This document shows positions 29,097 to 30,965 of a stretch of DNA of 32,000 nucleotides, in pieces (the stretch's first letter is position 1; each line of letters begins with the position of its first letter). Source of the stretch: Candidatus Saccharimonadota bacterium (GTDB lineage: Bacteria > Pseudomonadota > Gammaproteobacteria > Enterobacterales > Enterobacteriaceae); the NCBI GenBank assembly GCA_041941765.1, contig CP145869.1, positions 372,019 to 404,018 on the forward strand. The letters are read 5' to 3'. The translations under genes and the position numbers were made by a program. Below the pieces are notes generated by a model that did not search any database, was not told where the DNA came from, and saw nothing but the letters and a program-made list of their open reading frames with translations.

Positions 29097-30965
29097 ATGC
29101 TTAAGTCAAATTTGACTGGTAGATTACAATTTATACGCGAAGCAGAAAAGTTAAAAGATACTTTACGTAGCTCGTATACATCAAAGGGACGTCAAGAAAG
29201 TACAGCTGAACATTCCTGGAGACTTAGTCTATTGGCAATGATTTTTGAAGATCAATTACCTACTAGAGTAGATTTTTCTAAAATACTTAAGTTATGTATG
29301 ATACATGATTTAGGTGAAGCAATTCATGGAGATATTCCAGCAATCAAACAGATTGATTTGAGAAAGAAGAAAACTCAAGAATATAATGATCTCTTACAAT
29401 TAATGGCATCTTTAGATGATGATAGCAAAAAAAAATTTTTACAATTATGGGAAGAATATGAAGAATCTTCATCTCTAGAAGCACAAGTAGTTAAAGCTTT
29501 TGATAAAATTGAAACTTTGTTACAACATAATCAGGGTGCTAATCCAGAAGATTTTGATTATTACTTTAATCTTACATATGGAAAAGAAATAACTAATATT
29601 TTACCCTTATTTAGTAATCTTAGAAAAGAAATTGATGAAGAAACTATAAAAAATATTAAGAAAAAAAAAATAATAAAGGATGATAATCAATTAAAAAAGA
29701 ATGCGCTCATTTATCATGAATTTCCTGTTCCGGGAAAAATACAAGTTACTGCTACTAAACCATTATTCACAGAGCGTGAATTATCACTGGCTTATTCTCC
29801 TGGCGTAGCTGCTCCATGTTTAGAAATATTTGCAGATCCTAGGGCCGTGAATAAATATACATCCCGTGGTAATTTAATTGGAATTGTTTCTAATGGAACA
29901 GCAGTACTGGGTTTAGGAAATATTGGTCCATTAGCAGTCAAACCAGTTCTAGAAGGTAAGGCAGTACTTTTTAAAAAATTGGCCGGAATTAATGCATTTG
30001 ATCTTGAACTTAAAGCATTAGATCCCGAACTATTAACTAATATAATTGCATCTCTAGAACCAAGTTTTGGAGCCATTGTTCTTGAGGATATAAAAGCACC
30101 TGAATGTTTTTATATTGAGAAAACATTACGTAAAAGCCTTAAGATTCCGGTTTTTCATGATGATCAGCATGGTACAGCTATTATTTTGAGTGCTGCTGTT
30201 ATAAATGGTTTGCGTCTGGTGAATAAAAAGTTATCTGAGATTAAACTCGTAGTTTCTGGAGCAGGAGCTTCCGCCATCGCTTGTTTAGATTTATTAGTGA
30301 CATTGGGCATAACAAAAAATAATATTGTGGTATGTGATTCAAAAGGTGTAATTTATAAAGGTAGAGAAAAAAATATGTCGCCTACTAAGGTAGAGTATGC
30401 TATTAATCCTAGTAAAGGAAAATCTACCTTGGATGAAGTAATACTTGATGCCGATATTTTTTTAGGTTGTTCTAAAGCAAATGTTTTAACTCAAGCTATG
30501 GTAAAAAAAATGGCTAAAAATCCATTAATTTTTGCTTTAGCTAATCCACAACCAGAAATTTTGCCTCCATTAGCAAAAGCTGTACGATCTGATATTATTA
30601 TTTGTACCGGTCGATCTGATTATCCTAATCAGGTTAATAATGTTCTCTGTTTTCCGTTTATTTTGCGTGGTGCATTGGATGTTGAAGCTACAACTATTAA
30701 TCAAGAAATGAAATTAGCAGCAGTCTATGCTATTGCTAATCTAGCCTTATCTAAAGAACAAAATAAAATAGTCACTACTAATAATGATGAAACCTTTATA
30801 TTTGGATCAGAATATTTAATACCTAAACCATTTGATCCTCGTTTAATTTTGAAAATTGCACCAGCAGTAGCAAAAGCTGCAATAACTTCAGGAGTTGCAA
30901 CTACACCAATTACAGATTTCGCTGCTTATGAAACAAAATTGTCAAACTTAATTCGTTATTATTAG
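29097..30965 (+). CDS. maeB: in-frame fusion of an HD_3/YfbR-type nucleoside 5'-monophosphatase domain (about 29097-29675) and an NADP-malic enzyme catalytic domain (about 29676-30965; no PTA-like domain)
   Basis: 622 aa. The N-terminal part has the H..HD..D signature (STAEHSWRLS, IHDLGEAIHGDIP, KAFDKIETL). From KDDNQLKKNALIYHEFPVPGKIQVTATKPL...YSPGVAAPC...VFHDDQHGTAI...GAGASAIA onward it is colinear with E. coli MaeB residues 1 to about 430. AGAGGA Shine-Dalgarno before the ATG at 29097. Confidence 0.85.
   Translation: MLKSNLTGRLQFIREAEKLKDTLRSSYTSKGRQESTAEHSWRLSLLAMIFEDQLPTRVDFSKILKLCMIHDLGEAIHGDIPAIKQIDLRKKKTQEYNDLLQLMASLDDDSKKKFLQLWEEYEESSSLEAQVVKAFDKIETLLQHNQGANPEDFDYYFNLTYGKEITNILPLFSNLRKEIDEETIKNIKKKKIIKDDNQLKKNALIYHEFPVPGKIQVTATKPLFTERELSLAYSPGVAAPCLEIFADPRAVNKYTSRGNLIGIVSNGTAVLGLGNIGPLAVKPVLEGKAVLFKKLAGINAFDLELKALDPELLTNIIASLEPSFGAIVLEDIKAPECFYIEKTLRKSLKIPVFHDDQHGTAIILSAAVINGLRLVNKKLSEIKLVVSGAGASAIACLDLLVTLGITKNNIVVCDSKGVIYKGREKNMSPTKVEYAINPSKGKSTLDEVILDADIFLGCSKANVLTQAMVKKMAKNPLIFALANPQPEILPPLAKAVRSDIIICTGRSDYPNQVNNVLCFPFILRGALDVEATTINQEMKLAAVYAIANLALSKEQNKIVTTNNDETFIFGSEYLIPKPFDPRLILKIAPAVAKAAITSGVATTPITDFAAYETKLSNLIRYY
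29661..29670 (+). repeat. A10 homopolymer at the HD/malic-enzyme domain junction
   Basis: Direct count: aag aaa aaa aaa ata ata aag gat gat. With 9 A the frame reads TAA TAA immediately. With 11 A it reads aat aat aaa gga TGA. Confidence 0.95.

Follow-up and report, generated by a model that had tools for sequence, protein, structure and literature searches.

The locus described here raises the question of how a central metabolic enzyme can still be produced once its gene has lost its own start codon. In a window of 32,000 nucleotides (the whole stretch of DNA analysed, positions 372,019 to 404,018 of contig CP145869.1, assembly GCA_041941765.1) the last open reading frame (ORF) of a putative 7-deazapurine operon begins with an HD-type phosphohydrolase domain and runs without a stop into the malic enzyme (ME) MaeB. 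The DNA belongs to Candidatus Dasytiphilus stammeri, an Enterobacterales bacteriome symbiont of dasytine beetles (PMC11191362, Wierz et al. 2024), and most likely to the strain from Psilothrix viridicoerulea. The genome of the window strain measures 0.46 Mb, within a range of 0.44-0.60 Mb for Dasytiphilus, and the DNA has about 30% GC. Our reading, to which we assign a probability of roughly 80%, is that loss of the spacer fused the HD gene to maeB, that MaeB is translated from the HD start only and that both domains are functional.

As the initial annotation had proposed, both enzymes lie in one frame, and Pfam finds the two domains in a single ORF (Table 1). The joint reads GAA GAA ACT ATA AAA AAT ATT AAG AAA AAA AAA ATA ATA AAG GAT GAT AAT CAA and is translated as EETIKNIKKKKIIK-DDNQLKK; the protein stretch spanning the junction is ...EETIKNIKKKKIIKDDNQLKK.... 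Alignment with free-living MaeB (MDDQLKQSALDFHEFPVPGK in P0022) places the codon AAG at 29676-29678 in the position of Met1, which agrees with the earlier assignment. Between ATG 29403 (codon 103, within the HD domain) and GTG 29847 (codon 251) there is no in-frame ATG, GTG or TTG, and the only start-like codons in this interval are ATA and ATT. The GTG, first located about 60 codons into the catalytic domain, lies 57 codons into the MaeB part and already beyond the AYSPGVA motif. The MaeB part has lost both its start codon and its ribosome-binding site. For the whole ORF a single canonical initiation signal is left, AGAGGA followed by a 6-nt gap and the ATG at 29097-29099, a start that agrees with the start MLKSNLTG of the HD proteins in related strains. 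The linker is made up of the final C-terminal codons of the HD gene and about 18 nt from the 3' end of the ancestral spacer between HD and maeB. In an AlphaFold2 model the HD half is predicted with high confidence (predicted local distance difference test 88-98) and its last helix (residues 170-189) ends about six residues before the first ME helix (196-206); the model is confident for the HD half only, as the alignment of the ME half is too shallow.

In order to see whether the fusion is inherited, the junction was compared between strains. When species-representative genomes were scanned with the HD half, ten Ca. Dasytiphilus stammeri loci were found; their HD sequences are 69-85% identical to that of the window, and none matches it exactly. 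Psilothrix is the one Dasytes-clade genome that is not among these hits. The fusion is present in the window, in the symbionts of D. aeratus (Daer) and D. virens (Dvir) and in one more sample with 1 mismatch in 18.9 kb, and probably also in the symbiont of D. plumbeus; in the relatives it has 612 aa and is 79% identical at 99% coverage. Separate genes, with an HD stop, a spacer, AGGA and ATG, are found in the strains from D. niger (Dnig), Dasytastes bicolor (Dbic), Dasytastes sp. 01 (Dsp01), Danacea nigritarsis (DngrGER) and Listrus sp. 06, sp. 00 and sp. 04 (Lsp06, Lsp00, Lsp04). Their spacers are AT-rich, span 92-260 nt and are followed by AGGA, 6 nt and ATG-GAC-GAT. The strain from D. alpigradus (Dalp) represents a third state, in which the spacer, the ATG (with AGAA) and an intact HD gene are still present and maeB is a pseudogene (Dalp locus 10661-11540) with several frameshifts and about 150 missing codons including the NADP-binding domain. 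In Listrus sp. 01 maeB is absent.

The three fused junctions can be derived from this ancestral arrangement (Table 1). Every fused strain has lost about 75-90 nt, the HD stop among them, and retains the last 18-21 nt of the spacer as linker. All three linkers can be aligned with the final ~20 nt of the ancestral spacer and carry mutations where the latter has TAA, GGA and ATG. The Met1-position codon in the fused relatives is AGT or AAG and the AGGA site is lost, so that the lack of an own start noted for the window MaeB extends to its relatives. The junction sequences are caaaataaaattacaAAG in Dvir and gaaaaataaaattataAGT in Daer, and neither joint carries a long homopolymer run. The fusion is a genuine, inherited translational fusion. 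As the stop, the Shine-Dalgarno sequence and the ATG are lost in all fused strains, MaeB is most likely made only as part of it. Comparison with related strains, which had been named as a check on the idea, cuts both ways: the same fusion exists in Daer and Dvir, but in most strains HD is unlinked to maeB, and in some it is dispensable for the cluster.

Table 1. Features of the fusion locus (window coordinates) and codons at the joint in the maeB frame.
Feature	Position	Strand	Remarks
Operon before fusion	24384-29086	+	fusion ORF is the last cistron; Pfam, NCBIfam
QueE-like radical SAM	24384-25097	+	Pfam/NCBIfam
GTP cyclohydrolase I (FolE-type)	25108-25719	+	Pfam/NCBIfam
QueD/PTPS	25729-26244	+	Pfam/NCBIfam
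GMP-reductase-like	26256-27407	+	Pfam/NCBIfam
Phosphoribosyltransferase	27355-27864	+	Pfam/NCBIfam
UbiD-family decarboxylase	27806-29086	+	Pfam/NCBIfam
Ribosome-binding site AGAGGA	29085-29090	+	overlaps UbiD-like stop TAG 29084-29086
Fusion ORF	29097-30965	+	622 aa, ATG start, uninterrupted over the joint
HD_3 / YfbR-HDDC2-like metal-dependent phosphohydrolase domain	29097-29645	+	aa 1-183, up to ...IDEET
Fusion linker IKNIKKKKIIK	29646-29678	+	11 residues, Lys-rich; junction comparison with unfused Dnig, Dalp
A10 run within linker	29661-29670	+	exactly ten A
Malic-enzyme half of MaeB	29679-30965	+	aa 195-622, TAG stop; Pfam, NCBIfam, alignment
infA, convergent	30972-31190	-	6 nt past fusion stop; 3' boundary, compact locus
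Dnig spacer end, maeB frame			...caa TAA gga ata ata ATG
Dalp spacer end, maeB frame			...aaa TAA gaa ata ata ATG
Window joint			att aag aaa AAA aaa ata ata AAG
Dvir joint			atc ctt ttt caa AAT aaa att aca AAG
Daer joint			att ctt ttg aaa AAT aaa att ata AGT

These data also bear on a trivial explanation, namely that the true genome carries nine or eleven A at the joint and that HD and maeB are separate genes joined by a sequencing or assembly artefact. Homopolymers of ten A are indeed error-prone on some platforms and a run of nine would finish the HD gene neatly with TAA TAA. However, either length would still leave the maeB frame without ATG, GTG or TTG and without a Shine-Dalgarno sequence, so that the separate initiation codon expected from such an error does not appear. 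The published Dasytiphilus assemblies were built from Illumina reads only, and over 12,904 nt, A10 included, the window does not differ from an independent Logan assembly of SRR27812163. Three other samples are fused without any homopolymer at the joint. An assembly error was ruled out on these grounds, its remaining probability being close to negligible.

Another way to keep the two proteins apart would be a separate start of MaeB, either from a non-canonical codon (ATA 29670 or 29673, ATT 29655) or from an internal transcript. ATA and ATT codons do lie at the joint, and a promoter-like TTGAGA-18-TATAAT (11/12) is located within HD at 29358-29387, about 15 nt before the in-frame ATG 29403. 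But none of the ATA or ATT codons is preceded by a purine-rich Shine-Dalgarno sequence, both codons are ubiquitous in this DNA, and AGGA, conserved in the unfused strains, is lost in every fused one. Promoter-like matches number 33 against 40.9 expected in shuffled sequence, and scans of the window for promoters and terminators both stayed at chance level. Initiation of MaeB at ATA or ATT, which would speak against production as a fusion only, is very improbable in our view, and so is the separate start as a whole.

We propose that the ancestor had an HD gene at the end of a seven-gene tubercidin-like operon, followed after a spacer of 92-260 nt by a truncated maeB with its own AGGA-N6-ATG. 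In the order that we infer, a deletion of about 75-90 nt would first have taken the HD stop and most of the spacer, after which HD would end at a TAA 9 nt ahead of the ATG. This last in-frame TAA of the spacer would then have mutated, to AAA in the window and to AAT in Dvir and Daer, giving the fusion, whereupon the now superfluous Shine-Dalgarno sequence and ATG would have decayed neutrally. MaeB would thus be transcribed from the operon and form the C-terminal part of a two-domain protein of about 70 kDa that is translated from the signal at 29085-29099. Most simply, deletion bias removed the spacer in a 0.46-Mb genome and the resulting fusion was tolerated; it would not be an engineered coupling.

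Whether this happened once or twice was addressed with neighbour-joining (NJ) trees of 12 and then 14 genes, counts of informative sites, indel characters and a maximum likelihood (ML) analysis under the general time-reversible model with gamma-distributed rates (GTR+Gamma) and resampling of estimated log-likelihoods (RELL). The D. niger strain is basal with 100% support, and the branching among the window, Dalp and (Daer,Dvir) comes close to a trichotomy. By NJ the window goes with (Daer,Dvir) at 15-48% and the unfused Dalp with (Daer,Dvir) at 41-84%, the latter speaking against one origin; the informative amino-acid sites split 25 to 23. ML favours the window together with (Daer,Dvir), with RELL values of 0.41 for codon positions 1+2 and 0.77 for all positions. 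A single origin is further favoured because the breakpoints are near-identical, because a one-residue insertion in HD is common to the three fused sequences, because of MaeB substitutions at which Dalp retains the ancestral state, and because the same four fused strains have also lost peptidoglycan synthesis (PMC11191362). We therefore regard a single origin as reasonably probable; two independent origins are the less probable alternative.

By its sequence, the C-terminal half is a malic enzyme. Pfam finds the malic N-terminal domain at aa 213-345 (80.0 bits, cutoff 23.1) and the NAD(P)-binding domain Malic_M at aa 359-556 (73.9 bits, cutoff 23.5), and the NCBIfam model for NADP-malic enzyme scores 634.8 bits over profile positions 5-425 of 764. 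In an alignment with three MaeB proteins of free-living bacteria and eight copies from Dasytiphilus, AYSPGVA with the catalytic Tyr, EGK with the catalytic Lys, LEDI and HDDQHGTA with the metal ligands and the dinucleotide/NADP-binding motifs SGAGASA and NQVNN are all kept. The ORF ends with the ME half, and no match to the PTA-like C-terminal domain (PF01515) was found in it. All Dasytiphilus MaeB are reduced in this way to about 425 aa, the PTA-like regulatory half being gone. E. coli MaeB lacking its PTA half is reportedly still active, with its regulation by acetyl-CoA lost.

The MaeB part might nevertheless be a dead tail, a non-functional read-through of a maeB that died with its start and has not yet accumulated stops. 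Consistent with this, some strains do without maeB, which has decayed to a pseudogene in Dalp and is missing from Listrus sp. 01, and in the fused strains conserved MaeB sites have changed their amino acid 2.5-3.5 times more often. On the other hand, about 425 codons are open in three diverged fused sequences at 30% GC and all catalytic and NADP-binding motifs are retained, while the truly dead Dalp copy decayed quickly. The ratio of nonsynonymous to synonymous substitution rates (dN/dS, NG86) between Daer and Dvir is 0.14 for the ME half, as low as in neighbouring housekeeping genes, and 0.41 for HD, with nine neighbouring genes at 0.06-0.32. A dead tail is very unlikely.

Some observations do weigh against our reading as a whole. 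Translation as a single polypeptide is itself deduced from the reading frame. At some 260 MaeB sites that are otherwise invariant, the fused strains show 19-25 changes and the nearest unfused strain 7, and the MaeB dN branch lengths of the fused strains are 0.065 and 0.048 compared with 0.026 in the unfused one, with other genes about equal. In the window, GGINLEDI beside the metal ligands has become GAIVLEDI. This faster evolution could reflect a partly relaxed function. Taking both sides together, we read both domains as under purifying selection and probably functional, with the constraint on MaeB somewhat altered or relaxed. All three fused sequences also have FAGIDVFDIE changed to LAGINAFDLE, a MaeB motif that is otherwise invariant (~29985-30025, MaeB aa 297-309). 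At several sites near this motif the two fused lineages have each replaced the residue, but not by the same one.

The N-terminal half belongs to HD_3 (Pfam, aa 16-168, E 2.8e-41, 141.6 bits, cutoff 22.5), with a YfbR-like match at aa 12-146. Its metal-binding motifs are intact with H39 in AEHSW, H70-D71 in IHDLGE and D136 in AFDKIE, and the H...HD...D ligands are conserved in all intact Dasytiphilus HD copies of the alignment. The best relatives in the PDB are human HDDC2 (4dmb, E 6e-21), 3kh1, 1xx7 and yeast YGL101W. Outside Dasytiphilus the closest relatives come from cyanobacteria (52%) and Firmicutes (28-41%) as stand-alone genes, and at ten such loci no genes of the deazapurine operon were found within 10 kb. 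Thus, these unclustered homologues lend no outside support to a role of HD in the pathway. In all Dasytiphilus strains HD takes the last position of the operon, and it is plausibly the terminal 5'-nucleotidase of a 7-deazapurine pathway, as judged from its family and place. Listrus sp. 00 and sp. 04 have a common in-frame stop in HD (HDLG*A) with the rest of the operon intact; the HD pseudogene loci lie at ~10190-10200 in sp. 00 and at ~10190-10310 in sp. 04, which is also frameshifted.

The A10 run at the joint, correctly counted in the initial annotation, had been taken as a site at which polymerase slippage could release a free HD protein. Loss of one A gives TAA TAA at once and a product of 191 aa, and gain of one A adds NNKG before TGA, for 195 aa, in accordance with what had been predicted. 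Tracts of A9-A11 in Yersinia tssM3 and Citrobacter tssM1 lead to 15-25% frameshifted protein (PMC4256274), and in Buchnera insertions during transcription climb exponentially with the length of A/T runs of up to 11 (PMC5574713). By analogy, a minor share of the transcripts probably gives HD alone at the A10, chiefly as the 195-aa +1 product, so this part of the idea is plausible. It does not hold as a conserved design: the joint has a tract of at least nine A in the window and no long run in Dvir or Daer. Genes with poly(A) tracts and slippage at them are reported from both Buchnera and Blochmannia.

It has to be asked whether selection keeps the tract in order to free a set fraction of HD. 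For such a programmed expression of two products speak the functional product ratio of the tssM genes, the exponential effect of run length in Buchnera, the fact that both shifted frames end within 0-4 codons, and the rarity of the tract, which is one of just two runs of at least 10 in 32 kb (23 A or T runs reach at least 8). But the other fused strains lack the tract at their joints, and two AT-biased substitutions in an A-rich, weakly constrained linker suffice to produce it: it derives from aaaTAAGAAa, the old in-frame TAA with the Shine-Dalgarno remnant, by T>A and G>A. Immediate out-of-frame stops are usual, because stops abound at 30% GC. An in-frame A11 is moreover tolerated in the essential trpS. 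Programmed slippage is quite unlikely, and we treat the A10 as a strain-specific remnant and tolerated noise, since it is unconserved, is easily explained by mutation of a linker under weak constraint and is paralleled by the A11. That A11 (14440-14450, trpS ORF 13862-14866) is the longest homopolymer of the window.

Upstream of the fusion, gene order in the operon is identical in all Dasytiphilus loci, and the 7-deazapurine operon (24384-29675, including the HD part) is present in every strain fetched, with maeB directly 3' of it in all clades. It had been speculated that the NADPH of the malic enzyme feeds the GMP-reductase-like step. Taken further, this would make the fusion an adaptive coupling, selected possibly twice. 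TubD-type reductases are strictly NADPH-dependent (PMC6112128), maeB keeps its place after the operon, the NJ position of the unfused Dalp beside (Daer,Dvir) would imply two origins, and the change to LAGINAFDLE is common to the fused strains. The fused partner is, however, a phosphatase and not the reductase, NADPH is freely diffusible, and the same genome, whose window also holds aroK, aroB, aroA and pckA, needs NADPH mainly for the shikimate and tyrosine pathways (PMC11191362). ML, the common one-residue HD insertion and the near-identical breakpoints favour a single origin. The operon persists in Dalp and Listrus sp. 01, which have no working maeB, and in Listrus sp. 00 and sp. 04, whose HD gene is broken; since maeB and HD were each lost separately where the operon persists, a required link is unlikely and the earlier suggestion is weakened. 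We consider adaptive coupling most unlikely. Hardly better placed is its extended form, an adaptive fusion that arose independently in Psilothrix-type and aeratus/virens-type symbionts, fixes the ME:HD stoichiometry and uses the A10 to set the ratio of free HD as in tssM. A tolerated spacer-loss fusion remains our preferred reading.

Some features of the surroundings are worth recording. The GMP-reductase-like, phosphoribosyltransferase and UbiD-like ORFs as listed overlap by 53 and 59 nt, and the Logan gene calls place starts further downstream, which still leaves overlaps of 8 and 50 nt. The overlaps suggest that the genes are tightly coupled in translation or that their starts are mis-set. 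Directly upstream of the operon (20703-24107) lie a nupC-type nucleoside transporter on the minus strand and a LytS-type histidine kinase with a LytTR regulator. The transporter is lost or degraded in Dalp and Daer, and in other clades no LytS-type kinase was found within 10 kb. In the D. virens strain the fusion and the convergent infA overlap by 4 nt.

The fusion also corrects published gene tables. In the orthogroup table of supplementary file 2 of PMC11191362 the HD orthogroup is given as 'NA' for the aeratus, plumbeus, virens and Psilothrix viridicoerulea strains; the gene numbers from queE to maeB are one short in these four, and the fusion is entered merely as maeB. HD was scored absent there because it is fused to maeB. 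Neither the genome paper nor its supplements contain anything on the fusion, on malic enzyme function or on deazapurines. A lesson for annotation is that expression of an enzyme of central metabolism would here depend on the promoter and start codon of an operon for a secondary metabolite. The neighbouring tubercidin-like operon is the more interesting biology: it is complete, is conserved in a beetle symbiont of 0.44-0.60 Mb, is undiscussed in the literature searched, and suggests an unrecognised, possibly defensive product of the symbiont.

Compared with known systems, the two halves of the protein are familiar and their combination is not. The malic-enzyme halves of MaeB (759 aa) from Erwinia, Pantoea and Yersinia are 70-71% identical to the C-terminal 428 aa of the fusion, which is colinear with enterobacterial MaeB from residue 2 onwards; the fusion differs in that the PTA half as well as the own start and ribosome-binding site are gone and that an unrelated enzyme of 193 aa is placed N-terminally. 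The HD half shares the fold family and the H...HD...D metal site with the 5'-(deoxy)nucleotidases of the HD_3/YfbR/HDDC2/YGL101W type. With 32.5 bits compared to a cutoff of 122 for the E. coli YfbR equivalog (NCBIfam) it is a member of the family and no orthologue, and one of its nearest solved relatives, 1xx7, is an 'oxetanocin-like' protein. The operon matches the tubercidin pathway of Streptomyces tubercidicus (PMC6112128) in its set of TubB/C/A/D/E/F-type genes, that is, in GTP cyclohydrolase I, QueD, QueE, 7-carboxy-7-deazaguanine (CDG) phosphoribosyltransferase, UbiD-family decarboxylase and NADPH-dependent GMP-reductase types, completed by a terminal nucleotide phosphohydrolase. This last hydrolase is an HD protein here and the Nudix enzyme TubG in Streptomyces; the likeness is one of sequence families only, in a 0.46-Mb insect symbiont known here from its genes. 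With the slippage systems of tssM3, tssM1 and Buchnera/Blochmannia the joint shares an in-frame run of 9-11 A within an ORF and stops in the shifted frames, an arrangement that in tssM3 yields a shorter second product. It differs in that the tract is unconserved among the fused strains, and the sequences give no sign of a selected product ratio.

Gene fusions and overlaps by loss of spacers are a feature of highly reduced symbiont genomes such as that of Carsonella. As in fusions of the Carsonella type, co-directional neighbours have been merged here by loss of a stop and intergenic DNA in a very compact locus. No other HD-malic architecture was found among the best 120 of 8000 word-sharing candidates, and none among the 150 best matches when 1.84 billion representatives were queried across the joint, which is weak evidence as clustering at 50% hides even the Dasytiphilus fusions. 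The domain architecture is new, and the event is of a known kind that is expected in shrinking genomes. Unlike in the Carsonella-type cases, the two partners do not catalyse successive steps of a shared pathway, and the unfused, fused and pseudogenised states all exist in sister strains, so that the steps can be reconstructed. The sister strains thus offer a well-resolved natural series of a gene fusion, with separate genes, a fused gene and a dead copy.

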